Positions 19,094 to 63,328 are shown, counted from the first letter of the whole stretch. The stretch is 63,328 bases of DNA, filler included, from Bonamia ostreae (GCA_040357525.1; 20 parts of 20 records of this genome joined end to end with filler, not necessarily neighbours in it), one strand, 5' to 3'. Notes: generated from the sequence alone by a model not told the origin. Program-made: numbers and translations.

Positions 19094-21711
19094 NNNNNNN
19101 NNNNNNNNNNNNNNNNNNNNNNNNNNNNNNNNNNNNNTTAATTAATTAANNNNNNNNNNNNNNNNNNNNNNNNNNNNNNNNNNNNNNNNNNNNTTCGTTA
19201 TCTTCACCTTGCATACAATGAAAAGTGAAAAAAAAATCAAACTACTGAAAGGGTGGAAGGACTGCTCAAAGAATATGATTATTTATTTAGTACTTTCAGA
19301 ATACAAATTGTTTTAAAATGAAAAATAGTAACTTCATCCATAATATATACAGTGTAATGACAACAATTGTAATAATTTCAGGAAGCAAAGTTAGATGACC
19401 TTGTCATGTCTAAAGTTGTACATTTTATTTTCATGTATTAAAATTATTCTGAGTAAGCAGAAGAAATAAATAAAACGTTTTCAATGTGATATTTATTTTG
19501 CTTATTAAATCTTACAGCATTGCATTGCAATGAAAATGGAATGAGAGAACAGGTACTTTCAAAAGCTGGACAGGCAAGATACGACATAGTTTATCTAAAT
19601 TCAAAAAAGATAATGCGCAGGATGAGGAGTTAAAATTGGTTATACCTACGTTATGAATTTTATATGCGTGAATGTAAAATATGACTGGGATAGAGTTTTT
19701 TAAATATACAAATATTTTATGATCTATTTTTTAGATTATGCACATCAGCTCAGAGAAATAGTTTTTGCTAGCCAAGGAGTTGAAGCTTTGTCAAGGGGAA
19801 GGTAACGATGAAGTCCAGACACCACCTCTACTCTGCAGCTCCTTTGCTATACGCGTTGAGGCGCTGCCAATTCAATAGTTGATATCACGCTACAAGGTCA
19901 ATTAGAGCGATCAAGGCACAATGTACAATGACGACTGCTCTTAATCTGCTTCCTTGAACCCCACATAGTCATTAATGTGTATCTCATCTTCATCACAGCT
20001 CGTGGTGGGCGTGTCACCTTTACATACTTACCCAAGAATCCCCACGGCCATCTTACTAATTGCTTGTATTTTGTGCATCTGTATCGCCTGAAAATAGTGT
20101 GAAATGAAGGATGTTATTCCAACACTTTAGAAAAGCTGTGTTTATATTTCATATCACAATGTATATATGGCTGTTTAAGGAATAAAACGTACAAGATAGT
20201 GTTTTCACGATATGTACATGTAATAATTTCCTGTCTGTGATTGTTGTTTCAAGAATTATCTAAAGCATAATTTTATGAAGCACTCTATTTTTTTCAGATC
20301 TTCATATGTGTTAAACATATGCACAACTGACATAACTAATATAATAAACATATGCACATACTCTGGTAGATTTTAAATATGGTTACCATACTGTTGCTTG
20401 TACTAATTTTTTGCAGTGTCCAAAACATATATGTTCAAGCAAACTGGTTCAAATACAGAATGATTAGTTATGCACGTACATGTAGTTGGCCCCCTGGTGA
20501 CATTACATTTGCTATTCGTGGTATTACTCTGCGGCAGGCAGATTCACTAGCCGATGACAAAACATGCCAGTGTTTACATTTGCACCTGGTAATAGAGAAC
20601 AACATTTATATTCTAAAATTGCACATGGAAGTAGGAAGCAATAAAACGCAATTCGTAGAACTCGTAAAGCATACTCATCAGGAATAAATTACAAATTACT
20701 TATTTGTCATTTTTTCTATAGTTATTTGTCACAAGGGAAAGCAAACTGATTTTTTTTTAAACACTATAGAGTCTTCAAAGTATGTTATCTTTACACTACC
20801 TTTTGTTGTTATTTAGTCGGTTATCGTCAGAATCCCTTTGATCTTCACTCTCTCTTGCTCTTCTTCATTACATGACAAATACGGTTCAGATTGATAGAGA
20901 GGTATTGCCAAAGTGTGTAATGATGTTTCTGATATATTGAATTATTCCTCGACACTTGATGTTTCCCGCTGGCAGTGATATCAACAACTTGGTGTAAGAA
21001 TCAGAATCGTTACAAGATTCGGCAGCCATATCGTTTTCCCCAACACATATTTGTAACGACACGATTGGAAAACCACTAATACCGAAAGTGAGATTTGACC
21101 GATTATTGATTATTTAGGCAGGTGTAACAGCATCAATTAAGTAGGCTATATATGGGTTATTACAGCAGAGTTTGAAAATAACCGTACTCATCGGACTGGC
21201 TCTTTAATTTAGCATTTTATCATATTTTATTTCACCGCAGCGTAGCGTTTTATCTTTACATCTATTTTTATATCTACGGTTGATTTTGCATCTGCAATCA
21301 TGGTAAAACTTGTCTGTACATTTTTATTAATATTTATTTTAATAACATTTGAAAAAAATTCCCACCCCCACGTCATGTGAATCATGGAAGCTGACACGTT
21401 CAAAACCACACGGTGTATAGTGAGTGACGTTTACAATAAATGTTATTTAAAAAATTCCAATTAAGTCTGTCAATATATAAGATAGTATAAAATCAAATAT
21501 TTGGGACTTGACATTTTGAAGGTTTGCATTTTATCCATGATGATTGTGTCATTGACTACAAATAACCTTAATATTTTAGACATGCAGCATTTGATACATA
21601 TTGGTACTTTAGCTTTACGAGATGCGAGTCGAGTACTTATAATGTTTATCTTTTTAACAATGTATAACCTGCGTCTTGTAGCTATAAACACTGTAATGTA
21701 TATGTGAGTAC

Positions 21712-21771
21712 CTTGACAAGGTGTAAATCCGGTGCTTGATGACTGTCCTGCCGGACATGGAGATTCTTCTC
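21712..21771 (-). CDS. Isolated 60-nt phase-1/1 exon encoding a Cys-rich GCC2-GCC3/ephrin-receptor-like repeat (metazoan-style gene)
   Basis: TTTCGTAG|...ESPCPAGQSSSTGFTPCQ|GTACTC with long flanking introns. A probable upstream exon lies at 22224-22276. Confidence 0.6.
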
Positions 21772-22376
21772 CTACGAAAAGCATGATTTATCTACAACTA
21801 TCAGTATTTCATTAAGACGTAACTAAATGATAAAGTCTAGATTTTATTTCATCTTGCGACTACTAACAAACAAGTTCTGAAACACACAGGAATACCTCCC
21901 GACCCGGGTACATAAATGATAATCTTGAAAGAATACAACATTCCTGATTAATCCCTAAGTCTGTAATTGCATTTTTGAAATCATGTATAACAAGCAAAAC
22001 AGCTATAGGAAATTTACAAGCAAAGTACATGGATCGAGAATATTGATTTGTAATAATGCATAGTGAATGACGAAAAAATCACAAAGTTTAAGTCAAGGGG
22101 CTGATACAAAATGCTTTTTCTAAAATCAAACAAGTATCATTTAAATATTTCAATAACATTTGCCGTGACACCGAATCCGCAAAATTAAATCTACCCCTAG
22201 CCATTCTTGAATCGCTACGTTACCTATGCAGTAGCCAGTGGAGGTTTGAGAAGGCGGCACACGATAATACACTCTGNNNNNNNNNNNNNNNNNNNNNNNN
22301 NNNNNNNNNNNNNNNNNNNNTTAATTAATTAANNNNNNNNNNNNNNNNNNNNNNNNNNNNNNNNNNNNNNNNNNNN

Positions 22377-29567: not shown

Positions 29568-31678
29568 TCAAAAGTTGTGCCGTGGCTTCAAAGATTCTTT
29601 GAACAGCTTCGAAAGATCCGTCCTCAAAATCCTTTTTTCGTTTTTCTTTCTTACCGGCGGCGGCAACATCGCATGATCTTCGCTGTGCAAAGCGACATTG
29701 TATTCAAATCCTTGGAACCGTTGTTGAGCTCCGCTATCTAAAAACCCGCTATTTCCTCTTTTCTGGTTATCTTTGTGAAAAATGTTTTTGTCGACCATTG
29801 TGGTCCCGCGTTTTTCTTCCCGGGGCACAAAAGGAGGTTTTAATTTGCGGGATCGAATAGATTCCCAATCGATTGAGCGTAACCAAGGATGCTCTTTTAA
29901 TTCTTTTACGCCATTTGGACCACAACCGATTCGGTTTTTAGGTCTAAACTGCAACATCTTAAATTGTCGAAAATTTTAATTTTGAAAAAATGTTTTTTGG
30001 TAAATCAAGCAAACTCGATTTAAGAGATTTCTGACAGAATCAGAAGAAGGAATGAAATCGGGAAAATTAAGTTCGATATTTTTTTGATGGCAGTTTATCA
30101 TATTTTCGTCTGATTTATAAGGGCGCTTTTGATAAGAATTTTAAAGATTTTGGCCCAATTTGCGAAAAATTTAATGTTTTAAAATTAGAAAATTAGAAAA
30201 TTAGGAAAATGGAAAACAAAAAATTTTTAAAAATTTGAACTTTTCTAAATATCATTTCGAATAAACAGACGCCCATGCTCCAAATATCAACAGAAAAACG
30301 ATAAGTTTGTTTGTTGATCATTTCCGGGGCTTTTTAGTTAAATTTGCCAAACCGTTATAAGAATCAGTTCCGGCTACGTTTTTCAAGACTTCATTCTCTT
30401 TTTTAAATTGATAAGACAATCCAAAATCGCAAAGTCTCATGTTCCCATCTGCGTCTAATAACATGTTTCTGGGCTATTTTCATCATTAAAATAAAGTTTT
30501 TATTATCAGAAATTAAGTTTTTACTTGTTATTTTTGTAAATTAATGAATTTTCATTTTTTGTAAATTAGGTTTTTCGTTTTTAACGCAATTTATTGCTTT
30601 TATTGTTTTTGTAGTTTTTTTTTCGTTTTTTATTTGGAAGATATTTTTTATTTTTTCGACATACCGACAAAGATGAAATGGAAAGTGAAGAGATTTGATA
30701 ATATCTTTGTTGACTAAAAAAATCAAATCTCTCCACTTTATATTTCTACCTTTTTCGGTATGTCGACGTTTAGTTTTCGAAGATATGTCTTTTTAGCAAT
30801 TAGAAGATAAAATTGAAAGTGGTAAAATTGGAATTTTGTTTTAACGCAATGATTAAAAATTTTTGTGATTTTTCGAAACGAATTTTCATTTTTTTTTGTG
30901 TTTTTATAGTTTTGCTATTAATATTGTTTGTAACAATATTTTGTTGTTATTTTACAAATTATTTTAAAGATGATAATTTAGTTTATAAAGAATGAACCTT
31001 AATATCCTTTTTTATTAATAAAATTAAAAAATTGAAAATTACTCTGTGGACAATGTTTTTTTCGTGAAGACATTCAACTGCCAGATATAACTGCGCAAAA
31101 TAAAATCTAACTTGGCTTTCGCTTAAATAATAATGGGATCTTGAATAATGTGTTATATCACTGCCTTTACATTTTTTTGTCAAATTGGATTTATTTTTAG
31201 AAATAATAATTTTGTTAATTTGCAAGAACAAAAAATGACAAACAGATTAAACATTAAAAAATAAATTGTGCAAACCTGGCATAAAAGGAACGACCATGTA
31301 ACATTCATAAAATGTTTGGAAAGAACAAATTAAAGGCAACAAAAAATCATTTTTCGTAGAACACATAATATCCCTCTCCGTCCAAACAGATTTACTAAAT
31401 GTTTTTGATTTTGCTATCTACAAAAATTATAAAATATTAAAGTTTTGGAGGTTTTAAAACTCTTGTTTTGTCCATTACTTTAATGGCCACGACATCACCA
31501 GTAATCCTATTCACAGCTTGAAAAACTTTTGCAAATCCTCCCGATCCAATAATTGCAACTAATTTGAAATGTGACAAATCGACTATTTTTAGACAAGAAA
31601 ACCTTGATACGGATTTATTTGTTTAGAGCATATCCAAAATTCATTTTTCTTAGTATAAAATGGTTGGCAATTCCCCAT
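29568..31678 (-). CDS. AGC-group Ser/Thr protein kinase (STK32/YANK-like), possibly N-myristoylated
   Basis: MGNC start, IGSGGFAKV, VAIKVM, HR/DIK/PRNMLLD (split across a microexon), CDFGLS, APEM, DIWSMG and AGC tail LKEHPWLRSIDW...KPPFVP...FQGFEY. Confidence 0.9.
30656..30766 (-). other. Long imperfect inverted repeat (hairpin) inside kinase intron 30474-30997
   Basis: Arms TCGACATACCGACAAAGATGAAATGGAAAGTGAAGAGATTTGAT and ATCAAATCTCTCCACTTTATATTTCTACCTTTTTCGGTATGTCGA pair over about 45 bp around a loop of about 21 nt. Confidence 0.85.
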
Positions 31679-34932: not shown

Positions 34933-36724
34933 TTTTTATTAAATTTTTATTTTCGACCNNNNNNNNNNNNNNNNNNNNNNNNNNNNNNNNNNNNNNNNNN
35001 NNTTAATTAATTAANNNNNNNNNNNNNNNNNNNNNNNNNNNNNNNNNNNNNNNNNNNNTTATAAGAAGCCCTGTAATTAGAAATATTGTACCATTACATT
35101 TTTTATATTTTTTTACTGACTATTTCTGAAAATGCAAAAATATTGAGGAATGCTCGATCCGACTTAGAAAAAGAACAGTAATACTTTTTAAAAAGCCATT
35201 GTACTCCTTTTATCAATATAAAAAAATTTAAAATGCAATTTTTGTTGCTAAGCAGAATTTCTGGTGCTTTTTAGAGGCAGTTCTAAATTTAAGTCTGAGT
35301 TGAGGTGGTCTTTTTCTAGAGGTGTTCTTAAATCATGAGGTTCTACAATATTTGCTGAATAATCGTTTTCTTTGCTTTGGAAAGATTATGTTTATTTTTT
35401 GAATGTCGTTAAATCTTACAGATAATAAAAATTCAAAAATTATTAACTTTGACAAAATTTAACGAATTTTAAGAAATTTGGGAAATCGCTAATTTTGGAA
35501 TCTTGTAAATTTAAATATTAGACTAAAAAATCTTTAACACAGTGATTTTTTTTTATATTTTAAGAGTTGAGTTCTAAAGACGCGAAGATTGTATTTTTAA
35601 AATTAAAATTTTTATAAAATCATAACTTTTCTCTCACTCGATTAAAGTCTTTGCGATCCCAATCAATCAGAATTTAACTCTGCAAACTCCAAGTAGCAAA
35701 ACAGGATAGTTTTCTGTCACACTACAAACCCTGTTCTACGAAAACGCGGAAACGATCGTTAAAATCGCATATATAGCAAGGCATCTTTAAAGGTTCAATA
35801 TTTATATCCCATCTTAAGAAAACATATAAACGATCTTAAGAACTAATAAAAACGATCTAAAAAAGCTAGAAGAAAACAAGTATTTTAACACAAAAGAGGA
35901 ACTGATCAGTTGCATCAAAAATGTTTTGATGAGAATTCTTCAAATGCAGATAACAAAGCTAATTGAATTAATTAAAACAAAGGCAAAACATTCTTCGACG
36001 GTTATTGATATTTTTAAAACTATAAAAGAGTTTGAGCGGAATTACTCTGAAGCTGGTTTGATTTCACTTTTGGTTGAAGAGCCATTTGTCAGCGAGAGAA
36101 GACCGCTTGAAGGATTTATTTGTATTGTTTTTATTTTAAATATTTAAATTATTTGTTTTCGTAGACCAATTATAATATCTGTTGGATATTTTGCTTGATC
36201 GATTTTTTTTTGTTATTAAACATGTTTGGATATTTAGGAAATATTTTTAATTTTTAACGTCCGTTAGATATAAAAAGCAAACAGAAAAATATAAAAAGCA
36301 AAATCTAAAAAAATATAAATGCAAAAAATATCAAAAATTGCTTTTAAATCTAAAAAAGCGGAGCTAACTAAAATCAGTTTGCTGTTTAAAAAATTTGTAA
36401 AAGCAATTAAAGGATTTACCTATGAATTAATTATAATGAAAAATTGATTTTATAGAGAAGTTACTTTATGAGAATTTGAGAGACTAGATTTTCAAATCAA
36501 CAGGGATTTTAACAATTTGTCCATTTCACGATTTATCTTTTGGGGTCGAGACAACGTTATGTTTTCAAAGATTTTCCTTTTCTTATTTCGTATCCAATAC
36601 AAAAAACGAAACTCTATCTTTATAATCATATCAATATAAGCTGGAATAAAGTTAGAAATTATAGAATTATGACATTTATTCAAAATAACACATTAAAATA
36701 CGAATATAAAAATTTTAAATAAAA

Positions 36725-36852
36725 ATGTCTCGACATGGGGCAGAAGTCTTCCCAATGCAGTGACTAATTGCACGGGTGAGGATCGAACTGACGAATTTTA
36801 TACTTACATGAGGCAAACTAAAGCGACTACCATCTGAGCCATGTCGAGACAT
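36725..36852 (-). ncRNA. Candidate Pol III small RNA or tRNA-derived element with terminal fold-back stem
   Basis: Perfect 14-bp terminal IR (ATGTCTCGACATGG/CCATGTCGAGACAT). On the minus strand: A-box TGGCTCAGATGG (36830-36841), B-box GTTCGATCC (36780-36788) and TTTTT at the 3' end of the stem. Confidence 0.55.
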
Positions 36853-37009
36853 CTAATCTGAAAATTTTTAAAATAAATGAATTTATTTAATCATGAATAT
36901 TTTGTATTGGAAACAGAGATAAATATTGTTATCACATGATTTTGTTATTATATCGTTACCAATTGTCACAATATCTAACATATAAATCTTATTAAAGGAA
37001 AAAAACTGG

Positions 37010-37896
37010 TTAACAATTTAAAATTTTAAATCTTATTCTTTTCTCATTTAGTATCTCCTCTAATTCAAAAATCCTTTTAAATTCGTTGTAACAATTTAAA
37101 ATAAACTTTGAGCAATTTCTTTTATTCAAAAGCGAAAATTCTACTTCTTCTAAAGATTTATTTATTTTTAAAGATGATACAAGCGAATCCAACAAACCGT
37201 CAAAATCCTTTATAAAGATCCACAATTGTAGCCATTTTAATGTATCTGATTCCTTGATTAATCTGAAAATATTCTTTTATTTGATTAAATATGAATAATT
37301 TATTTTAAAGGTAAAATCAAAAAACTGCTGAATTTAATCATCATAGATTTTGCAAAATAATATTTTAATCACAAAAGTTAAGTCAAAAATACAAATTTTT
37401 ATATTTTAAATAAAACCTTCCACCCCTCTAAACCAATACTTCTATCCTTATGAATTCTTAATTTCTCAAGTTTCAATTTTTTTAAATGAAAGAATATTTT
37501 TTCCGTTCCTTCAAAACCAATTTTGGTTCTTAAAAGTTCGAAACATTCCAAATTTGTGAAAATTTTAAAAAATTTGTCCCAATTTGTAAAGTTGTTAACT
37601 GTGATTATTGTAACCTTTCTGATCAATTTTAAAAAAGGTTTTTTGTCACAATTTTCATATTCATCCAAAAATTTTTTCATTGAGTTTTCTGATGAAAAAA
37701 TAAGTCTGTCTTCAACTCCTTTCATACTATCATTAGAACATCTTTCTTTTATAATCGACTTTATTATTAAAATTTTTATTACCAATAGTCTTTTGTCACT
37801 CCAAGTTATCCACCCCTTTGCCAATTTTGGATGATCAATATTTTCAAAATTTTTGTAAATTTGTTTTATCTCACTCAAAATATTCTTCTCTAACAC
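37010..37896 (-). CDS. RNI-like leucine-rich repeat protein, partial
   Basis: NLECFELLRTKIGFEGTEKIFFHLKKLKLEKLRI..SIGLEGWK and SLKINKSLEEVEFS fit the RI-like LRR pattern. Confidence 0.55.
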
Positions 37897-38949
37897 TGAG
37901 AATATCGATTCATTTATAAATATTTTGTTTTTTTCGAATACTTTCTTAATTAACCTGATCTTTATATTGATGATGATATGTAGATTATTTAAAAATGTAA
38001 AAATGCAATTAAAAAACTCTGTTTAAAAAAATTGCTTTTGTATCTTCGATCCATTCCTTTTCCGTGTCAATATTTTTTTTAATCTGGTTAAAACAATTTT
38101 TGTCGACCATTTTTTCNNNNNNNNNNNNNNNNNNNNNNNNNNNNNNNNNNNNNNNNNNNNTTAATTAATTAANNNNNNNNNNNNNNNNNNNNNNNNNNNN
38201 NNNNNNNNNNNNNNNNAAAGTCGTAAATCATCTAAGCAAAATACATCCATTATCTGTACAAAAAAGAGAAGATTAGTGATACAGTTAATTTGCGATTTTG
38301 TTTACTATATAATTCCAGAAGAGTTAATCAATGCTGGACATCATCGCAAATGATTAACACATCTAATGCACGACCCTTATGAAGGCAATGTTTAGTAAGT
38401 AAGCAAATTCAAGTTTTAAACACCAGTCCCGGATTGTTTTAAAGCTTGTTTAATATTCACAATTCCCAAAATCAACAAAGAAATTCGTGAGTACTAATTT
38501 TTGTAAGATAGACATGTTTTCTGATTACAAAATAACAATATATCAACTAATCAAATACCCGAATTCTCAAAGACAATGGTTTCTTCATGGTGAAAAAAAA
38601 TCATTCTATTTTTGAACTATAGAAGAGTGTTTTACACAACACATAAAGCTGAGAACACAGTTAATGCAAGATACTGTATTTTTTGGTAATTCATATTTTT
38701 TTCTGAAGACCCCCCCCCCCCAATCGTCTAGACGCACAGCACATCCTGATGACCGTTTTAAATTGATCAGTTTCAGCGCGTTTATCACATACATCCTAAA
38801 CAAAATGCTCTCAATGGCTCAATTTATTCTTAAATATAATGTGACTATAGTTTTGATTCCAATCGATGAAACTACATAAAGTATAATCGACTTCGGTCCA
38901 AATGTGACACTGATCAATATGGCAGTGATGCTGAAGCACCCTCTAAAAC

Positions 38950-40260
38950 TTCTTGCATCAAGTAAACATGACACATTGGAGGATACATATACTTTATTGT
39001 AAAGCTGTAGGACGGATTGAGGCCACTGGATGGGGAATCAACTTAGTATTGTTGTGGATCGCTATGTGTCAACAGCGAAAATCACGCTTCTACACACATA
39101 ATTTCAAGATGGCAATGGACCATTTATTAAGGAATACTAGTATATCTTGCATTGCTTATATTAATGAAATCTTGATATTCGTGGCCAAATGGAGAATTCT
39201 ATCTTTATAAATGGAGGAATCTCTGAAGAAGAAAACTGTTTGCTATACTTTAAGTCCCGTGAGTCCCTGTCTACTTATCAAGCCATACGAGTACTTATAT
39301 TTAATTTCTGAAAGCCAATGCAGTTGAAGACTCTTCGTTGATGAAAGAAATAAACTACCGAACAGTTTTGAATCGGCAAGACATCTGTGGAGAGGAACCA
39401 ATAGTGAATGTCAGGAAAGTTATGATTTGGAATCCATAATAGCATACACATCAAACAATAGTGATATCTTTGGATGGTAAAACAGGCTAGACTGATATTG
39501 AACTGTGTGCGTCCTTACCATTTTATGGCAATGAAGTGGTGAAAGCCTGTGTTGAGGGAGGAGACATTAGTGGTGAACCACTTACAATGCAGTTGAAGAG
39601 TGTCAAAAAGGACAGAAGATGAAGATATACGTCACCATCGCCTGTTGCTTTGATAGCATTTCAACAGAACCGGACATCCTGTTTGCAAAAGAACATAGTG
39701 CCATTTTATCTGGAGTTGCACTCTGTTCCGTACGGAATATCTGTAAACAATGGAACTCTGGACTCGGCTATATATGAAATTTTCCACGAATAATTGATGT
39801 CTCCCGGGAAGACCTTGTTCCCAGAACCACTTATACCTGCGAAGTACAAGCTGCCAAAGAGGGAGATGTTTTCCTAATATGACAGCAACACATAAAGGAG
39901 TGCTTCGTTTCTCGGAAGTGCCAAGTCAGTTGCCTTTAAGTCACAGTATTTAATGCAAGTGAAAAGAAAGCCAAATCAATTCAGCATCAGCCACATATTT
40001 GCTACACTGGCCTTATGACTCTATTTAGGATGAGCGGCGATCTATTCGTTGCCTTATTAAACAAAGTCAGCTTCACAAGAACATTATTCCTGCAGTACTC
40101 TTCCTTTTCACCAGTGGATTGTTTAAACCTATTGGACCTCGGAAATAAATTGAAACTTGTACTTTCTCCATAACGATCATCTTGAAAGGTTGGAAAATAG
40201 AGGGTGGCGAAGTCCCCTACTTACACGATCAAAATAACCAAGGTAATGAGACCAGAGGTT
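38950..40260 (+). mobile_element. Highly degenerate Ty3/Gypsy-like pol relic (probable metazoan contig)
   Basis: FKMAMDHLLRNTSISCIAYINEILIF resembles the RT core FQRxMDxxL...xYLDDILIF. The downstream frame is full of stops. Confidence 0.5.
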
Positions 40261-40974
40261 AGCTATATAAATACTCTCATCTACACGGCCCTGACTGCTA
40301 TTGCTGTTTCGAAGGGAAAAAACTCCCAGGAAAGTGTGTTATGTGGGTCCCTGGGGCGTTCCAGGACACATAGCTCATCCAGCGGCTCTCTGAACATAAC
40401 ATGACCAAAGAGACTCAATTACTAAGCACGTGACTTTTACAGTATTAGCACTGCTTGCTTGTATAGTATGGTGTTTCTTACTTAACCAAAGAACAATTAA
40501 CGATTCCTAGAATACTGCAACATAGATATGGGACGTATTTACACTCCCTGTTATTTTTATATACAAAGTCCTTATCTTCTACACGCAATTTTTAATTGAT
40601 TGGCTGTTCCCTCCCCTATTTTTAAATAAATAGTGAAAGGTAGTTTATGTGTGAAGTGCTAAATTGAAGGATATGTGTAGTGAATCTACGATTGCGCCCC
40701 CCCCCCCTCCTACGATTTATAGGAGTTTTGCATTTGGGGAGAAGTACTCCAAATTCATTTTTTTTTTCTTCCTTGTCAAAACGTTAAGTCAATTATGAAA
40801 TAATTCTGCTGCCCCTCTCCAACTTTAAAAAACGCCGATGCTACTTGCCTGTTTCTGTCAATAGTTACAATTAGAATATCTTGAAATGCAATAGCCTTTT
40901 TTGATTTAGAAATTGATATTTTATTTCACTGCATCTGTTTAATAGATTTGAGTATACAACTGTCATATACTTAC

Positions 40975-41046
40975 AGTTTATGTAGCTTAGAAAGACCTTC
41001 GAAGTTGATATTCTCTATCGTTGTCAATTGATTAGAACCCAGAGAT
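40975..41046 (-). CDS. Isolated 72-nt LRR exon (metazoan extracellular LRR gene)
   Basis: TTAG|...SLGSNQLTTIENINFEGLSKLHKL|GTAAGT: exactly one 24-aa LRR per 72-nt exon. Confidence 0.75.
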
Positions 41047-41372
41047 CTAAATTTAAAAAATATTAACTGCAAGTCCTTTACTTATTCTTCCTTTTATTCC
41101 TCGGAGCTTTATAATACTTAGCATCACGAACAAGTAATATTTCATGCAAACAAATTATTAATTGAATCAAAAGGGATTTGAACTTCTTGAATTATCATAA
41201 ATGAGCATAAAACAGTTACCATCTGCAATGAAATGAGAAATACAGTCATAATACGATACATTATTACCAGATNNNNNNNNNNNNNNNNNNNNNNNNNNNN
41301 NNNNNNNNNNNNNNNNTTAATTAATTAANNNNNNNNNNNNNNNNNNNNNNNNNNNNNNNNNNNNNNNNNNNN

Positions 41373-44074: not shown

Positions 44075-44428
44075 ATGTTTAACAATTTTCCTTGCGGTTT
44101 CCCTCAAAACTTCCAAAACTACCAAATGCCCTTCTGTCCCCCTTTTGGCAACAACCGAAACAATTTTTCAAACGACTATTCAAATTCTTGCTATCCGCCA
44201 AGAGGACCACCCGGACCCCCTGGATGCCCAGGAATGCCCGGTTTCAACCTTGTTGGACCTGTAGGCAGACCAGGCTGCGTTGGTCCAATTGGACCAAAAG
44301 GACCTCAGGGATTTAGCGGATGCCACGGAATGCCAGGATACCCGGGAATGGCGGGCTTAAACGGAAGAAGAGGCAAAAAAGGGCCCAAAGGTGTACCAGG
44401 AAAACGTGGATATTGTGGCCCGCGGGGG
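44075..44428 (+). CDS. Collagen-like (Gly-X-Y) protein, 3' partial
   Basis: About 24 Gly-X-Y triplets with one interruption ([12 protein letters not shown] ... GKR GYC GPR) after a P/N/F/C-rich N-terminus. Confidence 0.85.
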
Positions 44429-44528: not shown

Positions 44529-46815
44529 AACTAGCGACATTTTTTCATGTATCGCCACCGAATCGAATCCCAATTTTTTCAAAAACGCATTCACTTTTGC
44601 AACATTTTGCGGAAAAGCACAAAATATCAACGTTTTTTCCTAATTTTTTTCAGCAAATTTTTTTTAAAAAACATTGCAAAATTTCCGATCCAAATTTCGT
44701 TCTAATATTTTCGATTCTGTAAAATTGATCAATTTTTTATTATACAATTTTTCCAAATTTATTTCGTTGCAATTCTCGTTATCACCAAAATTACTATTGA
44801 CGCCAAGCGCTTTTAATAAAGAGATTTGGTGGTCAATCTCGCCTTTAACTAGTTTCCAAGAAGTTTCGAGCTGAGGAAGGACATGATGCAACATTGGCGA
44901 CTGAATCCAAACGGAATTTTTAAATAACGAATTGAGCGGATTAAGTCGATTCGTCTGTTTTTGGGTCATTTCCGTTTTGTGCAAAAATTTCTGCACAATT
45001 TTTTTGCCCAATGTCGCACCGCAAAAAATATATTTTAGTTTGGACTTTTCAAGTCCGATAAAGCTTTTTAAGGGGCTTAAAAGGTCTTTTTTCGTTTCTC
45101 GCAAATCGCCTTTTTTCGAGTTTACAATATTATTTTCATCGTTATTTTTTCCGGATTTCGTTGCAATTTTATCGCCGGACTTTGATTGGTCGATTATATG
45201 GAAATTTTGTGTTTGATCAGTTTCTTTTTCGATCATTTTGAAAACGGCCAAAATCGATTTCAAATATGTCCAACGTTCGTTAAATGGCTCTAGAAGAAAA
45301 TCGGCTTCGTCGAAAATGATGAAATTTAGTCCGATGGCCAAATCGGGCGTTATCTTCGTCGCCAATGTTTTCGGAGTGCAAACAAGAACGTCCGGAAACC
45401 ATTTTGGATTTTCCGATTTTTCCAAATTTTCGTTTTTTTTGATTTGCAAAATTTCTTTTTGTTGAGCTTTAACAGCTTTTTTTCGGATGTTTTCTGTTTG
45501 GACAAAAAGATGATTTGAGAATTTTTGTTTGTCGCGATGTTCAATTTGCGGGAAAGTTTGGGATTCACGGAAATGTTGAATTGCGATTTTGGAGTTTTCT
45601 GCGATTTGAATTGCGACGTTTTTGATCTTTTGAATTTTGGGTTTTGAAACTTGGTTGCAAAGTTCCTCGGTGGCGCCGATCACGATGGCTCTTGGGAGTC
45701 TGGCCAGATTTTTGTTGTGGTCGTAACCTTCTAATCGGCGTTGATCGGGTGTTAGCAGTTTGTCGATTGTCGGTGTCAAATAAGCGATCGTTTTGCCGCT
45801 GCCCGTCTTTTTTAAGTTTTAATTTTATTATTTTATTTCAAAAATTTGTTATTTCGAAAATTTTATTATTTTATTTCAAAAATTTGTTATTTCGAAAATT
45901 TTATTATCTTATTTCAAAAATTTGTTATTTCGAAAATTTTATTATTTAATTTAAAAAATTTGATATTTCGAAAATTTTATTATTTTATTTCAAAAATTTG
46001 TTATTTCGAAAATTTTATTATTTTAAAAAATTTTGTTATTTCGAAAATTTTGTCATTTTAAAATCTTTGTCATTTTAAAAAATTTTATAATTTAATTTCA
46101 AAAATTTGTTATTTCGATAATTTTATTATTTTAAAAAATTTTGTTATTTCGAAAATTTTGTTATTTTATTTCAAAAATTTGCCATTTTAAAAAATTTTAT
46201 TATTTTATTTCAAAAGTTTGTTATTTTAAAATTTTGATATTTCAAAATAAAACTTCAGCGCCCAAAACAATTGTTTTTTTGTTAACAGCGTTTTTGATAA
46301 CGGGAAAAGCGAGATTTTGTATAAAAGTGGGATATTTAAAGCCATTTTTGTAAAGATTTTTGAGAATTTTCGGGGACTGAATATAATGTTCAAAGTTTGA
46401 ATTTGTGTTTATGAACGGCGCTGGAGTTGCTGCTTTTCTTAATTTTTATTTAAAAATTAGCCTTCTTCGATTAAAAATTGTTAGTCGAAAAAATCAATTT
46501 CTTTTTTTAACAAAATTGCGATTAAACATTATTTTAATAAACAAAACTCAAAATTATCAAGTTTTTTCGGACTTTTGTTTTTAGTCAAATTATTATTGAA
46601 ATGGCTGTTTTTGTTCGGAATCGCTTTATTAAAAAAGTTTTCGTTCTGGAGAGTATCGAAATCTTTCTAAAATTTTTAAAATTGACCATTATTTCGTTAA
46701 CGGATATTTTAGTTTTGTCGATATTCAATTTTGTTTTCGGTTTTCGTAAATCGCCGCTTTTTCGCATTTTCGGTTTCACAGCGTTCTTGGTTTTTGCCAA
46801 GATTTTGTTCATCAT
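44529..46815 (-). CDS. DEAD-box RNA helicase (DDX28/Mrh4-like), partial
   Basis: Q motif PTFIQNLAFPVI, GAE/TGSGKTIAYL, PRAIVIGATEELCNQ, VLVCTP, IIFDEAD and motif III variant CGATL. Start uncertain. Confidence 0.8.
45820..46250. repeat. Intronic tandem repeat, about 38-bp unit
   Basis: TTTCGAAAATTTTATTATTTTATTTCAAAAATTTGTTA repeated about 11 times, filling the intron between the Q motif and Walker A exons. Confidence 0.9.
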
Positions 46816-48664: not shown

Positions 48665-50737
48665 TCAAAGAAGCAACAACACCAGTTCTACCAATCCATA
48701 TCGAATCAGTGCTTTTCCCCCAAAATCACTCTCCATCAACACGGTCGACACTTTTTCGACCGGTTTTTCTCTGGTTGAACAAATAACAGGCGTCCAAGTC
48801 GAAGCCGATCTTTTCGTGAAACCGCTTATAAACGACAAAAGCGATTTCTGGCTCGAAAATGGCGATATGCGTCCGGGGCTGCAGCTGTAAACACAAACGG
48901 TTTCGCCGTTCGAATCCACAACGCAGTTGTCCCAATCGACTTCAAAAACAACCTGTGCGCCGTAACTTGTCTCCCGCGATTCCAGAGAATGCTTGTCTTT
49001 CTCGACAACGAAGGAATGATCGGCGCAGAGCGGCCGAACCCATTCTCCGTTCTGACTCCAGATCGCTCCTTCGAATTTGTTGTGTCGACGGCGGTCGTAC
49101 GGCATCGCAAACAAATCTCGGTCGCAGACAAATCTGCAAACAGCTCCTTCCGATTTTTCGCATTTCGAAGAAACGTATTTCCCGTTTTTGATAAAAGGCA
49201 AATCTTCGTTTTCCCGTTCGACATCGGAAGAGCAGACGAGCGATTGCAGCACGACTTCCGCTGGGAAAAACCCTCCCTCTTCGATCGAAGAGAAGTACCA
49301 GTCGCCTTCAAAGCAAGTTAGCAGAATTTGCGATGTCTTCGAAGTCTGGAATTTCCCAGAATTGCAAATGAGACGACAAAGCGTTCCGGCGGATTTGATA
49401 TAGTTGGCGTCGTTGCAGTTTTGCGACAAGAGATAACCGCTTCCGCTATTTTGGAAGATCGACGAGTCGCAAGAATCGCGAGAAGCTCTGTCTGCGTTAT
49501 CGTTTCCACCGCCGATGCCAGAATCATCTACACAGCTATTGTCATCGTAGCAGCCGACATCGTCGTCAGCCGTGTTCTCGTTTGTTTTGACATTGCAATA
49601 AAAGTCGCTTTTGCTGAAGAATGCTTTGTTCGTGTAACGCCAATTTCCGTTGTAGCAAATCAGATTTCTCGAGACGTGCAAAAATTGTCTGCTCGGGAAA
49701 AGTCCAGTTTTGCACTTCAAAGAACAAAACTGGTTGTGGCCGTAGAAATGGCTAAAACTGCAATTTCCAGTTGTCGTCGACGAATATAAATCGCCTGAAA
49801 AACAGTTTTGTAAAATAGGATTTCTTGTTCCGATTGATCTGTCGCCATTTTCAAAGCCTCCGTTTTCATTGTCGATAGTATTTTCGGTGGAATCGTCATT
49901 ACCGTTTTTATTTTCATCGTCATCCCCACCCGCAATGTCGCCATCACCGCCGTCATTATCGTCACCAGTGCCAATAACAGTCATTTTATCGCAAAGAATC
50001 ATTTCTCTGCCGTATTCAATATTTTTATAATTGTAAAATTTGCCCAAAATACAACTAAATTCTTTGTTTTCCTCCAAAATATTGTCGACATAGCCATCAA
50101 CACATTGAACCGTGCAAATACTACCTTCTTTTACATCCGACTTGCTTTGGCAGCTTCCTTCAGTTATCGGCAGGTACAGCAAATCAGTTTTGCATCCGTA
50201 AAAATGACATTCGACATACCCGGAGTAGCCATAATTGTTCAAATGAAGCCATTCGTCTTCGTAACAAATATATCTGCCTCGATTGGAATAGCCGTTTCTG
50301 CAACTGACAACGCATATTTTGGCATAATAAGTGCCATCTTGAAAGCAATCGAGGATATGCGTCTCGTTGTTTTTTATTAATAGATTGTCGTCGCAAGTCG
50401 GAATTATCTTCCTGCAGCGCCACTCTGTTTTTTCCCAATAAAATAGTCCTCTCTCGTTAAAGAATCTTTGATCTTCGTTGCAAATGAACGGAATTTCCAG
50501 TTTATTTATTGGATATATATCGCTGTGCAGAATGGAATCGTTTTTGCAGCCGACCAAGCAAAGTTCTTTCACAAAAACATGATTTTTTCTGTTCTTTTCG
50601 CATCTGAAATGAATGTCTTTGATTAAAAATTGCGACAGGTCGCATGTTTTGATGTTGCTCTCTTTGTCATCTTCTTCAATGTCTTTGCCTTCATTTTCAT
50701 CTTTATCTTCGTTTATATTCTCCTCTTTGTCATCGTT
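48665..50737 (-). CDS. Cys-rich sushi/CCP-like repeat surface protein, intronless here, 5' partial
   Basis: Frame is open to the contig edge. Repeated CxxxCxxG modules, mostly followed by C..G.W (CVVSCRNGY..CYEDEW; CSLKCKTGL..CYNGNW; CRLICNSGK..CFEGDW; CTVQCVDGY; CRFVCDRDL; CVYSCSPGR), with D/G/N-rich linkers and a hydrophobic C-terminus. Confidence 0.75.
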   Translation of the reverse strand, partial: NDDKEENINEDKDENEGKDIEEDDKESNIKTCDLSQFLIKDIHFRCEKNRKNHVFVKELCLVGCKNDSILHSDIYPINKLEIPFICNEDQRFFNERGLFYWEKTEWRCRKIIPTCDDNLLIKNNETHILDCFQDGTYYAKICVVSCRNGYSNRGRYICYEDEWLHLNNYGYSGYVECHFYGCKTDLLYLPITEGSCQSKSDVKEGSICTVQCVDGYVDNILEENKEFSCILGKFYNYKNIEYGREMILCDKMTVIGTGDDNDGGDGDIAGGDDDENKNGNDDSTENTIDNENGGFENGDRSIGTRNPILQNCFSGDLYSSTTTGNCSFSHFYGHNQFCSLKCKTGLFPSRQFLHVSRNLICYNGNWRYTNKAFFSKSDFYCNVKTNENTADDDVGCYDDNSCVDDSGIGGGNDNADRASRDSCDSSIFQNSGSGYLLSQNCNDANYIKSAGTLCRLICNSGKFQTSKTSQILLTCFEGDWYFSSIEEGGFFPAEVVLQSLVCSSDVERENEDLPFIKNGKYVSSKCEKSEGAVCRFVCDRDLFAMPYDRRRHNKFEGAIWSQNGEWVRPLCADHSFVVEKDKHSLESRETSYGAQVVFEVDWDNCVVDSNGETVCVYSCSPGRISPFSSQKSLLSFISGFTKRSASTWTPVICSTREKPVEKVSTVLMESDFGGKALIRYGLVELVLLLL

Positions 50738-60176: not shown

Positions 60177-60650
60177 TCTTTTATNNNNNNNNNNNNNNNN
60201 NNNNNNNNNNNNNNNNNNNNNNNNNNNNTTAATTAATTAANNNNNNNNNNNNNNNNNNNNNNNNNNNNNNNNNNNNNNNNNNNNTAAATCTTGAAAGACA
60301 TTGTTTCCTAATAAATACAATTTTAATATACGATTATAGTCTCTATTCAAAATAGCGGCAATTTTAGAAATCAGCAATTTAATAATAGATAAAATTTCTG
60401 CGATCTGGTATATACATAATTTGACAATAATCCTGGAAATACCTGATTGGAAATAAAACGAAGCGGAACAAACCGAAAACATACGATTGTCAACGAGAAG
60501 GAGAATGGCCATTGTAGGCAAAAAGATGATCAATAATCTTAAAGAGTAGATCCCAGGCACTTCTACTCACAAATCAAAAAGCAGATTGTTCCTTAGTCCT
60601 CACAAATTAAACGAGCAGAAACGCAACAACACAAAAACTAACACGCGTCT

Positions 60651-61442
60651 TTACTCTTCCCCAAAGTCGTAGCTTTTCTCAGCTCTCAGAGCGAGATTTC
60701 TCACCTCGTCAGGGCCTAAGACAGTCCACTTGACATCGTTCTCCGCGTTCTTGCAGATTTGCCCTATTTCGACCTTGTCGAGAGGCGTTTCGGTGACGTC
60801 CAACGCGCGGCACAACGCCCGGAGAGCCAATTCTTTTGCTTTTTCGAGAGAGAACTCGGCGTTGAAATGCTTTTTGAGAACGCCGGTGGCCGCGGCAGAG
60901 TTGGAGCCGATCGCCACAGCTTTCCACCCGGCGTAATTTCCGGACGGGTCAGTTTCGTATAACTGGAAGCCGTGTTGTTGGTCGTACCCGCCCACTAAAA
61001 ACGACGCGCCGAATGGGCGGTAACCGCCGAATTGGGTGTAGCTGTGCTTCAAGTCACAGACTCGTTTGACGAGGTGTTCCACTGGCGTGTCGTCTTGATA
61101 AGTGTAGCGATAGTTCTGGGACGCTCTTCGGGCGAAGTCGATTAGAGTGTTGGCATCCGCTTGGAGGCCAGCTACAAGGCAACTTTAAGTAAATAGTCAG
61201 AAACGTGATGTGTTTGTCGAGGCGATACATTTTCTCTGATTCGGTTTTGAAGTCGATCAGTTTTGACGTGATCCGCCGTTCGGCGGCAAAGACCACGCCG
61301 TCCTTGGTCAAAATTGCGACTCCGGCTCCTCCTTTGGAAATAGCTTCCATCGCGTTTTCGAGCTGGTGAATTCTTCCTTCGGGCGAGAATTCTGTGGTTC
61401 TTCTATCGAATCTTCTGGACTTTAATTAACTTATAAAACCAT
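60651..61442 (-). CDS. PSMA4: 20S proteasome subunit alpha3
   Basis: M/SRRFDRRTTEFSPEGRIHQLE..YTQFGGYRPFGASFL..LYETDPSGNYAGWKA. Introns 61420-61439 (20 nt) and 61183-61204 (22 nt). Confidence 0.95.
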
Positions 61443-62082
61443 TATCTAAATTTAAAAAATGTCTAAATAGTCACAGCTTTATATTGCAGTTCGTTAATAA
61501 GGGGTTGGCCATTTTTAGTTAAAAAAGCGATTTTTAAAAATTTTTGCTGCGACTCCATTTTGGAATTGGAAAACAAGGAAAAATAGCTTTTTGGGGAAAA
61601 CTATAGCTTCGTTACGTCACATCTCCCTCGTGGCCACGCCATTCCAATTAGTTTGACAACCTCGTCCAATTTGCTGAATCTTATAAATATCTCTTTTTCC
61701 GAAAGAACAATTAAAGAAAACCTTCCATTAAAAAATAATTTGTTATCTACCAAAAATCTTTTTTCAAACAATGTCCTTTTTAGATGCACAAAAAATTAGA
61801 TTTTGGAAACATAAAAAGATTAACAAAAATCAATTGAAAATGTCGAAAGTGAAAGGTTCCTAATCTCTCTAACTAAAAGATTTGTTATCATTTGCTTTTA
61901 TTTACATTGCGCTGGCCACGCACACCTTTGAAGTCTGAATTAAGGTGCAAACCGCTCGGACGCTCGAGGCGTTGGGGAGAATTTAATCAGTAGCCCCATT
62001 AAAATCATGGATTTCGCTCATTGACCAGTTTCCTAAGTCGACTAAATTAAAAACTTTATCCGAAAAGATAAAACAGCATAAA

Positions 62083-63328
62083 ATGTCTAACATAGCAGTG
62101 CGCCCTATTTGCGAAGAAAGCCATTTGTTCGCGAAAAAAAGCCTCTTGTTGAAAGAAGGAATCTCGATCATTGGAACCCCTTCTCCAAAGACGAACAGCG
62201 CTTTTCTCGGCGGAGTGCACAAAGAAACCATGCTCAAACAAGTCAATGTGCGCAGAGAATATATCGCGGCGGAATGCCTCAACCTTCGACGCGAAATGTC
62301 CAATGCCACAGAGGAAGTGAAGCGGATCCAGTCGGTGCCGTTGGCCGTAGGGCAGTTCGGCGAAATGATCGACTCGGAACGAGCCCTTATTCACGCGAAT
62401 TCCGGACAAACCTATTTGAGCCGAGTTCTGAGCACCATTCCGCGCGAGAGACTGAAGACAAACGCCCCGGTTGCGCTGCACCGCCATTCCAGCGCAGTCG
62501 TCAAAGTTCTGGAGCCGCACGTCGACGCGGCCGTCTCTGCGGTCACCATCACCAAACGCCCCGAGGTGACGTTTGCCGACGTGGGCGGCCTCGACGCGCA
62601 GAAGCAGGAGGTCCGCGAAGCCGTCGAGTTGCCGCTCACACACGCAGAGCTGTACCGGTCTGTGGGGATCGAGGCTCCGCGCGGCGTTTTGCTGTACGGC
62701 CCGCCAGGGACGGGGAAGACGATGATGGCGAAAGCAGTGGCCAACTCGGCGAAAGCGACCTTCATTAGCGTGGTCGGCTCGGAGTTTGTACAGAAATATA
62801 TCGGGGAGGGCGCCCGGATGGTGCGCAGCGTCTTCCAGATGGCCAAAGAAAACAGCGAAAACGGCGCGATTATCTTCATCGAGTTTCCAACTTAATAAAA
62901 GTGAAATCGACGCGATCGGGATGGCGCGGAGCGACGCCTCCGTCTCTTCGGATAAGGAGGTCCAGCGGATCCTGCTGGAACTGCTCAACCAGATGGACGG
63001 GTTCGACCAGACCACCAACGTGAAGGTCATAATGGCTACGAACCGCCCAGACACTCTCGACCCGGCTCTGATGCGGCCGGGACGACTAGACAGAAAAATC
63101 GAGTTTCCGCTTCCAGACAGACGACAGCGAAGACTCGTTTATGCGGCGGTGACAGCGAAGATGAGCCTCGCGGACGACGTCGACTTGGAGACTTTTGTGC
63201 GGCGCCCGCAAAGGGTCAGTTCCGCGGACATTGCGGCGATATGCGCTGAGGCGGGAATGCGGGCGATAAGGAGCAATCGCTACGAAGTATCCGAATCTGA
63301 TTTTGAAAGCGCTTTCGAGTCGGTGGTC
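62083..63328 (+). CDS. PSMC4: 26S proteasome ATPase Rpt3, 3' partial (start uncertain)
   Basis: [50 protein letters not shown] (19-nt intron 62883-62901) and [16 protein letters not shown]. Confidence 0.95.

Follow-up and report, generated by a model that had tools for sequence, protein, structure and literature searches.

A single-copy, tRNA-derived fold-back element of Bonamia ostreae that is not a tRNA gene

Bonamia ostreae is a haplosporidian (Rhizaria) that parasitises flat oysters, and one of its draft contigs carries a fold-back whose minus strand bears tRNA-like A and B boxes. The initial annotation of this locus had proposed either an undescribed RNA polymerase III (Pol III) transcript or a tRNA-headed SINE/MITE hybrid, and this raises the question of what such an element is: an odd tRNA gene, a mobile element, a small RNA gene of another kind, or what is left of a tRNA gene. 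We found that it is a real, tRNA-derived, single-copy fold-back, and not a tRNA. Among known kinds, a tRNA-gene relic or a tRNA-derived Pol III unit fits it; its mirrored 5' end is unusual.

The window, by which we mean the whole stretch of 63,328 bases that was analysed, is a chain of separate, unrelated draft contigs of ~3.1 kb. Its 20 blocks are sorted by falling length, from 3,108 down to 3,044 nt, and the linker between them is always the same 100 nt (44 N, TTAATTAATTAA, 44 N). Arguments from neighbourhood are therefore void outside 35059-38116, the element's own contig of 3,058 nt. This contig has a GC content of 0.256 and a tetranucleotide correlation of 0.967 with the remaining blocks, and its composition is like that of most of them. 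In a different block, the open reading frame (ORF) 44664-45779 has 98% identity to the NCBI entry "RNA helicase, partial [Bonamia ostreae]".

All the features that had been listed for the element (the GC-richer island, the inverted repeat, the A box, the T-arm, CTCAT, the extra hairpin and the T5 run) were present where they had been placed, and their coordinates are given in Table 1. The GC content of the element is 0.465, versus 0.23 and 0.207 in its 300-nt flanks. Its inverted repeat, described as a perfect 14 bp, or about 20 bp with two mismatches, was measured at 14 perfect base pairs and at 18 of 20 positions when the four pairs of the extension are included, and is the longest in the window, linker artefacts aside. 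The first 20 nt of the element, which comprise the leader, the acceptor 5' strand and the start of the A box, are mirrored ~40 nt past the T-arm, and the spacing from A box to B box is 41 nt. The minus strand has no run of four T between 36726 and 36860, and the T5 run follows immediately after the stem; of the 2,728 intervals without T4 in the window, 221 extend over at least 113 nt. Because runs of four or more T occur ~24 times per kb on either strand of the element's contig, the T5 run, correctly noted as present, is a weaker terminator signal than had been implied.

Table 1. Parts of the fold-back element, numbered from the first base of the window and read on the minus strand
Feature	Coordinates	Strand	Remarks
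Whole fold-back unit	36725..36852	-	5' end at 36852, 3' end at 36725; 128 nt
Inverted repeat (perfect, 14 bp), 5' arm	36839..36852	-	ATGTCTCGACATGG; acceptor-like 5' strand and beginning of the A box
Inverted repeat (perfect, 14 bp), 3' arm	36725..36738	-	Ends in a T that also opens the T5 run
Panhandle extension	36833..36836	-	CAGA of the A box pairs with TCTG (36744-36741) past a 2x2 mismatch, in the MFE structure
A box / D-loop block	36830..36841	-	TGGCTCAGATGG; the 14-mer GGCTCAGATGGTAG is identical to real tRNA D-arms
Decayed D-stem 3' strand and anticodon/variable region	36793..36826	-	Exceeds that of class I tRNAs by 8 nt; CTCAT at 36812-36808; anticodon arm ambiguous
T-arm-like hairpin	36776..36792	-	4 of 5 stem pairs, one mismatch; B box GTTCGATCC at 36788-36780
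Extra hairpin	36751..36776	-	Directly 3' of the T-arm, within the 40-41-nt segment before the acceptor-like 3' strand
T5 run	36721..36725	-	Possible Pol III terminator, weak evidence alone; begins at the last base of the panhandle

We addressed the origin of the boxes by searching for exact copies of them in other sequences. A loose A-box plus B-box expression matched the window twice, where 300 Markov simulations gave an expectation of 0.08; this excess is thin by itself for a scan of many windows. We then scanned 241 million metagenome records and 596 Gb of prokaryote genomes for the exact blocks (GGCTCAGATGGTAG, followed by GTTCGATCC after a gap of 25-50 nt). The pattern occurred at six places in the metagenome collection, five of which are tRNAs according to ARAGORN (Pro, Thr, Ile, Asn and Arg), and at three places in the prokaryote genomes, all of them tRNA-Pro by the same program, so that eight of the nine places at which the D-loop 14-mer and the T-loop 9-mer were found together are tRNA genes. 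Judged by these matches, the combination of blocks is practically restricted to tRNA genes and the element is tRNA-derived, as the initial annotation had suggested. Since the matches have several different identities, the blocks do not point to any one parent tRNA. Alignment to real tRNAs placed 8 extra nucleotides between the D-arm and the T-arm of the element and showed that the 3' strand of its D stem is altered. An exact 24-mer, made up of the T-arm and the next 7 nt, had no match in the metagenome scan, and blastn against phages gave only three matches at chance level (E 1-5), one of which lay under a tRNA-Ile T-arm.

The element has the skeleton of a tRNA with decayed stems, and its acceptor-like 3' strand lies 40-41 nt too far away. 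ARAGORN reported no tRNA gene in the whole window at its default threshold, with or without introns in the anticodon loop, and Rfam gave no match in the window at the gathering score; at E values up to 10 neither tRNA nor tRNA-Sec nor Vault matched, in 601 nt around the element or in 146 nt alone. These results bear out the earlier view that this is not a normal tRNA and that its 5' end pairs with a sequence about 40 nt further on. The acceptor strand finds its partner not in the bases right after the T-arm but beyond this interval, the D stem has only 2-3 pairs where an intact one would be needed, and the ambiguous anticodon arm does not resolve into a 5-bp stem with a 7-nt loop. The T-arm, with the conserved T-loop of the GTTCGATCC block and 4 of 5 stem pairs, does agree with a tRNA.

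We then removed segments of 1-90 nt from the minus strand at any start, and none of the 8,235 resulting variants passed the default threshold of ARAGORN, with or without introns. At 95% of the threshold two variants passed, both of which lacked 40-41 nt behind the T-arm. Variants that had been circularised, as for a permuted tRNA, passed neither at the default nor at 95% (0 of 2,116), and five of six real tRNA loci were detected as a control for the deletion and circularisation tests. Among double deletions, 130 of 197,722 passed the default threshold. These carried seven different anticodons and all shared the 40-41-nt deletion, and the best of them still had a D stem of 2-3 bp, an acceptor stem of 8 bp and the mismatch in the T stem. 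As this deletion after the T-arm is common to all near-tRNA solutions, the far 3' strand acts as the acceptor partner. The reading of the element as a working tRNA is refuted as far as tools of the ARAGORN and Rfam type reach.

Several other candidates were set aside. The nearest approach to a selenocysteine tRNA was a 75-nt 'SeC(tca)' drawing, obtained at 80% of the ARAGORN threshold, with 4 of 7 acceptor pairs. The only Rfam match of the 146 nt alone, of the plus strand to snoR122, reached 15.5 bits at E 1.8, and the C and D boxes were unmatched in the alignment. A hammerhead, a C/D snoRNA and a MALAT1-type 3'-end tRNA-like structure were considered by eye only and had no Rfam support.

The copy number of the element was evaluated with DNA contigs from two different studies. 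A contig of run X1 (36461-36996) spans both borders of the element unbroken at a depth of 9.27, and the adjacent unique contigs have depths of 9.33 and 7.45; a 3,433-nt contig of run X2, which matches 35407-38115, likewise crosses both borders unbroken, at a depth of 8.47. Unbroken contigs at the depth of their flanks in both runs indicate that there is no second copy with the same 31-mers, and that the fold-back is not an artefact of assembly or amplification. The element is therefore single copy at the 31-mer level, a level at which copies diverged below ~85% would escape. The initial annotation had listed a single copy, if neither expressed nor conserved, among the outcomes that would argue against its proposal, and a single copy is what X1 and X2 gave. 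No second copy was found elsewhere in the window (61 kb), and no direct repeat abuts either end as a target-site duplication would; the AT-rich look-alikes near the two ends belong to a motif that is common throughout this sequence. Between X2 and the window there were 13 differences in 2,709 nt, among them 36633, 36654, 36680, 36701 and 36891 in the flanks. The element itself is identical in X1 and X2, but this is uninformative, as 0.6 differences would be expected in 128 nt and none was seen.

Extra depth was also seen at the edges of the element, where high-depth contigs agree with AT-rich flanking sequence alone, reaching 36725 on one side and matching 36850-36887, with 5 mismatches, on the other. 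Such contigs occur in run X5 as well, which has little of the parasite contig, and we read them as host or unrelated DNA and not as further copies.

The stability of the fold comes wholly from the terminal repeat. The minus strand folds at -41.5 kcal/mol (z -3.98; none of 200 shuffles was as stable), and the 88-nt interior has a z of +0.51, with 134 of 200 shuffles folding equally well or better. As the interior folds no better than shuffles, there is no sign of selected RNA structure beyond the inverted repeat. Of the two strands, the plus strand has the more stable fold (-46.5, z -5.55), which counts against reading the element as the source of a minus-strand relic RNA. In a sliding scan of the window, the plus-strand position fell below the GC-adjusted mean by 3.18 sd (row six of the list, third distinct locus), and the minus-strand position was absent from the 15 most extreme.

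The neighbourhood of the element was examined within its own contig. Run X4 contains spliced RNA, as its contigs skip 36377-36455 (GT..AG, plus strand) and 35785-35853 whereas DNA contigs continue through both intervals. The X4 contigs cover 35606-36587, so that the plus-strand transcript extends to at least 36587; they stop short of the element and are uninformative on short, non-polyadenylated RNA. A 151-nt contig of X5, of which the kind (RNA or DNA) is unrecorded, covers 36472-36622. In the spliced plus strand a single frame is open across the joint and meets a stop soon after, near 36485 by our reading. On the minus strand, two open frames (207 and 88 codons) terminate at 37010. No homologue was found for ORF 37399-38022, and the flanking ORFs matched no Pfam family at E values up to 0.001, giving chance-level matches only. 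The element is thus flanked by two genes that are apparently convergent, the one on the minus strand being proposed from open frames only, and it lies midway in the ~525 bp that separate them.

Taken together, these observations suggest that the element is probably a remodelled tRNA-gene relic: it is of tRNA descent, has kept its A and B boxes and has lost the function of a tRNA. We tentatively go further and favour, at somewhat less than even chances, a single-copy nuclear relic whose retained type-2 Pol III promoter still recruits TFIIIC and Pol III. In such a model TFIIIC would bind both retained boxes, and Pol III would transcribe the minus strand from a start a few bases before 36852 to a stop in the T-run 36725-36721. 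The product would possibly be a non-decoding, minus-strand panhandle RNA of ~125-130 nt, its ends being those predicted from the boxes and the T-run. The bound complex would occupy the gap between the convergent protein-coding genes, where it might act as a barrier to Pol II read-through, as in yeast. A relic with a retained promoter is favoured because the stems are broken while the A and B blocks and the terminal helix are intact, a combination that is paralleled by relics in yeast. The damage (a D stem of 2-3 pairs, an ambiguous anticodon arm, one mismatch in the T stem, 8 extra nucleotides) lies outside the boxes. The putative constraint on the boxes is read from few positions of this one sequence, and the 61 kb contain no bona fide tRNA gene from which a consensus of Bonamia A and B boxes could be drawn.

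The main rival to this reading, which we consider somewhat unlikely, is that the element is inert debris. A dead tRNA pseudogene would have undergone an inverted duplication, by fold-back repair or template switch, that copied its first 20 nt past the T-arm; nothing would be bound or transcribed, and the boxes would be intact only because the event is young. The arms differ by one adjacent dinucleotide only, as in a recent duplication, and the single copy, the interior without excess structure, the lack of an Rfam family match and the lack of an RNA contig on the element among those of X4 are all consistent with such debris. However, damage is heavy in the stems of the tRNA body and absent from both promoter blocks and from the 14-bp helix, which is uneven for neutral decay, even if it concerns few positions.

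That a tRNA gene was recycled here into a lineage-specific Pol III RNA, a panhandle of ~125 nt, is in our view unlikely. If this were true, the RNA would be the first known non-tRNA Pol III small RNA in Haplosporidia/Ascetosporea, and might be either of the vault type, in a supergroup in which no vaults have been found, or a regulatory RNA like RUF6.

We considered it distinctly unlikely that the element is a low-copy fold-back or MITE-like mobile element carrying a tRNA fragment. It has terminal inverted repeats, and a near-perfect 111-nt hairpin of similar size at 30656-30766 has the same outer heptamer (TCGACAT...ATGTCGA). However, this hairpin resembles the element in the heptamer only, and the heptamer is over-represented generally (22 seen versus 12.7 +/- 3.5 expected). 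The contigs of X1 and X2, unbroken at flank depth, the absence of another copy in the 61 kb and the absence of target-site duplications argue against mobility, and the SINE/MITE option of the initial annotation was not supported; neither many dispersed copies nor target-site duplications, as such elements would have, were found in these data.

A further possibility, which we regard as highly unlikely, is that the hairpin marks or enforces the 3' ends of the mRNAs of the convergent Pol II genes, on either strand, and that its tRNA-like motifs are mere ancestry. The element lies ~240 nt past the likely plus-strand stop and 158 nt past the end of the minus-strand ORF, and it folds on both strands, the plus strand being the better. 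Against this, it is the sole intergenic hairpin of its kind among the 20 contigs, and hence not a general signal, and the RNA contigs end ~100-140 nt short of it, so that a link is neither shown nor excluded.

That the element is a true vault RNA, the RNA component of a vault particle, seems very improbable. Vault RNAs are described as 88-143 nt long, with a type-2 Pol III promoter of A and B boxes, a panhandle formed by the 5' and 3' ends and a variable central domain (PMC9179338), and the boxes, panhandle and length of our element agree with this description, as the initial annotation had observed of the general layout. Like vault RNAs, the element has its A box in the terminal stem, its B box 41 nt downstream and a T-run right after the stem; unlike them, its A and B blocks are plainly those of a tRNA and its T-arm is still recognisable, and the curated Vault covariance model, like the rest of Rfam, gave no match at E values up to 10. 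A survey of 2013 (PMC3762200) retrieved no sequence like the major vault protein (MVP) from the few rhizarian genomes available at that time. The Bonamia transcriptome paper (PMC9329632) does not use the word 'vault' in its main text, and neither there nor in the other literature we found did anything on tRNA genes or Pol III RNAs of Bonamia appear. The likeness to vault RNAs is purely architectural.

Finally, it is barely credible that the element is a functional tRNA gene that is processed in an unusual way (through a non-canonical intron, by permutation or as the selenocysteine type), as the 75-nt 'SeC(tca)' drawing and the 130 double-deletion variants that would speak for it stand against the absence of any default call with or without introns, the failure of every single-deletion and circularised variant in tests whose controls were mostly detected, and the seven anticodons, short D stem and 8-bp acceptor of those 130 solutions.

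If the relic is bound or transcribed, tRNA-gene relics would be reused as sites for Pol III and TFIIIC far beyond fungi and animals, and the element would provide the first handle on Pol III promoters in Bonamia, which belongs to a little-studied group of shellfish parasites. An inert element would be another tRNA pseudogene, with an unusual local inverted duplication.

Among the systems with which the element can be compared, the RUF6 ncRNA genes of Plasmodium falciparum, a parasite with an AT-rich genome, are Pol III genes whose A and B boxes are conserved; according to passages of PMC11208047 they form a family of 15 members tied to var genes, with Pol III transcription shown, and the title of PMC6974570 terms them 'GC-rich'. 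Unlike RUF6, our element is single copy, is not part of a multigene family beside variant antigen genes, and has orphan ORFs as neighbours, without link to an antigen gene family. Like SINEs it has a tRNA-derived head with A and B boxes and like MITEs it has terminal inverted repeats; unlike both it is single copy at the 31-mer level, without target-site duplication and without a tail. With a canonical nuclear tRNA gene it shares identical D-loop and T-loop blocks, an acceptor-like helix of at least 7 bp and a discriminator-like A followed by a T-run, whereas its acceptor partner lies 40-41 nt past the T-arm, neither its D stem nor its anticodon stem is intact, and it is called by no detector.

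The closest parallels are in yeast. ZOD1 is an old tRNA-Ile gene that is weakly transcribed and carries the Pol III machinery; YGR033C, a relic of a tRNA-Arg gene, is likewise still occupied by it, as described in parts of PMC5356446. In passages of PMC4228148, the Pol III complex on a convergent tDNA blocks Pol II read-through and limits the 3' extension of the PCL5 mRNA, and mutations in the B box of ZOD1 alter the transcripts of the neighbouring RPM2. Like ZOD1 and YGR033C/ETC9, so far as these sources describe them, our element is a single-copy remnant of a tRNA gene that is unable to make a tRNA. Unlike them, it carries a panhandle made by its mirrored 5' end, for which those passages describe no counterpart in the yeast relics, and the occupancy by TFIIIC and Pol III that they report for ZOD1/ETC9 in a fungus is, for this element of a rhizarian parasite, what its retained boxes would predict.

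The window comprises 20 separate contigs, ordered by size from 3,108 to 3,044 nt. Because these blocks are separate contigs, features that lie in different blocks are not genomic neighbours. Analysis of tetranucleotide usage showed that three contigs differed from the remaining 17, namely 19194-22276 (r = 0.80), 38217-41272 (r = 0.78) and 60285-63328 (r = 0.72; GC 0.476). These three contigs may have originated from the host or from another organism of the sample.

The contig that carries the tRNA-derived fold-back under study contains two short introns, at 35785-35853 (69 nt) and 36377-36455 (79 nt), both of which were absent from the RNA contigs of the public sequencing run X4. The second of these is bordered by GT..AG on the plus strand. 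In the first the plus-strand borders read CT..AC, yet a plus-strand frame is open over the joint. This arrangement implies one of three situations: a pair of genes that lie on opposite strands, a transcript that is antisense, or an intron of non-canonical type.

The coordinates of repeats, open frames and linkers are collected in the table below. The 38-nt tandem array lies close above the 45779 end of the minus-strand RNA helicase ORF, which is the 5' side of this ORF, and pieces of the array motif are present in many intergenic spacers, among them the sequences on either side of the studied element. The predicted product of the 635-codon frame has low-complexity stretches of acidic character, and its C-terminal tail is hydrophobic; it had no match in Pfam and could be a parasite surface protein.

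Repeats, open frames and linkers located in the window
Feature	Position	Strand	Description
Tandem array, AT-rich 38-nt unit	45821-46242		11.3 copies, 83% matches
Heptamer TCGACAT/ATGTCGA	e.g. 2400, 17896, 55788, 57162		window-wide
Collagen-like Gly-X-Y repeats	44189-44428	+	GC-rich open frame, reaches contig end
Cysteine-rich protein	48665-50572	-	635-codon open frame
Linker between contigs	e.g. 34959-35058, 38117-38216		N44-TTAATTAATTAA-N44

The heptamer was commoner over the whole window than expected under an order-3 Markov model (22 observed versus 12.7 +/- 3.5). It frequently takes the form AAAATGTCGAAA, for which a common Met-Ser start context may be the source.

A second fold-back, a near-perfect 111-nt hairpin, was observed at 30656-30766, and its folding (-46.2 kcal/mol, z -8.17) is much stronger than that of the studied element. 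As the ORFs that flank this hairpin resemble exons of a protein kinase gene on the minus strand, it is probably intronic in that gene. Direct comparison of the hairpin with the studied element found no similarity outside the heptamer, and it is this outer heptamer, TCGACAT...ATGTCGA, that the two fold-backs have in common.
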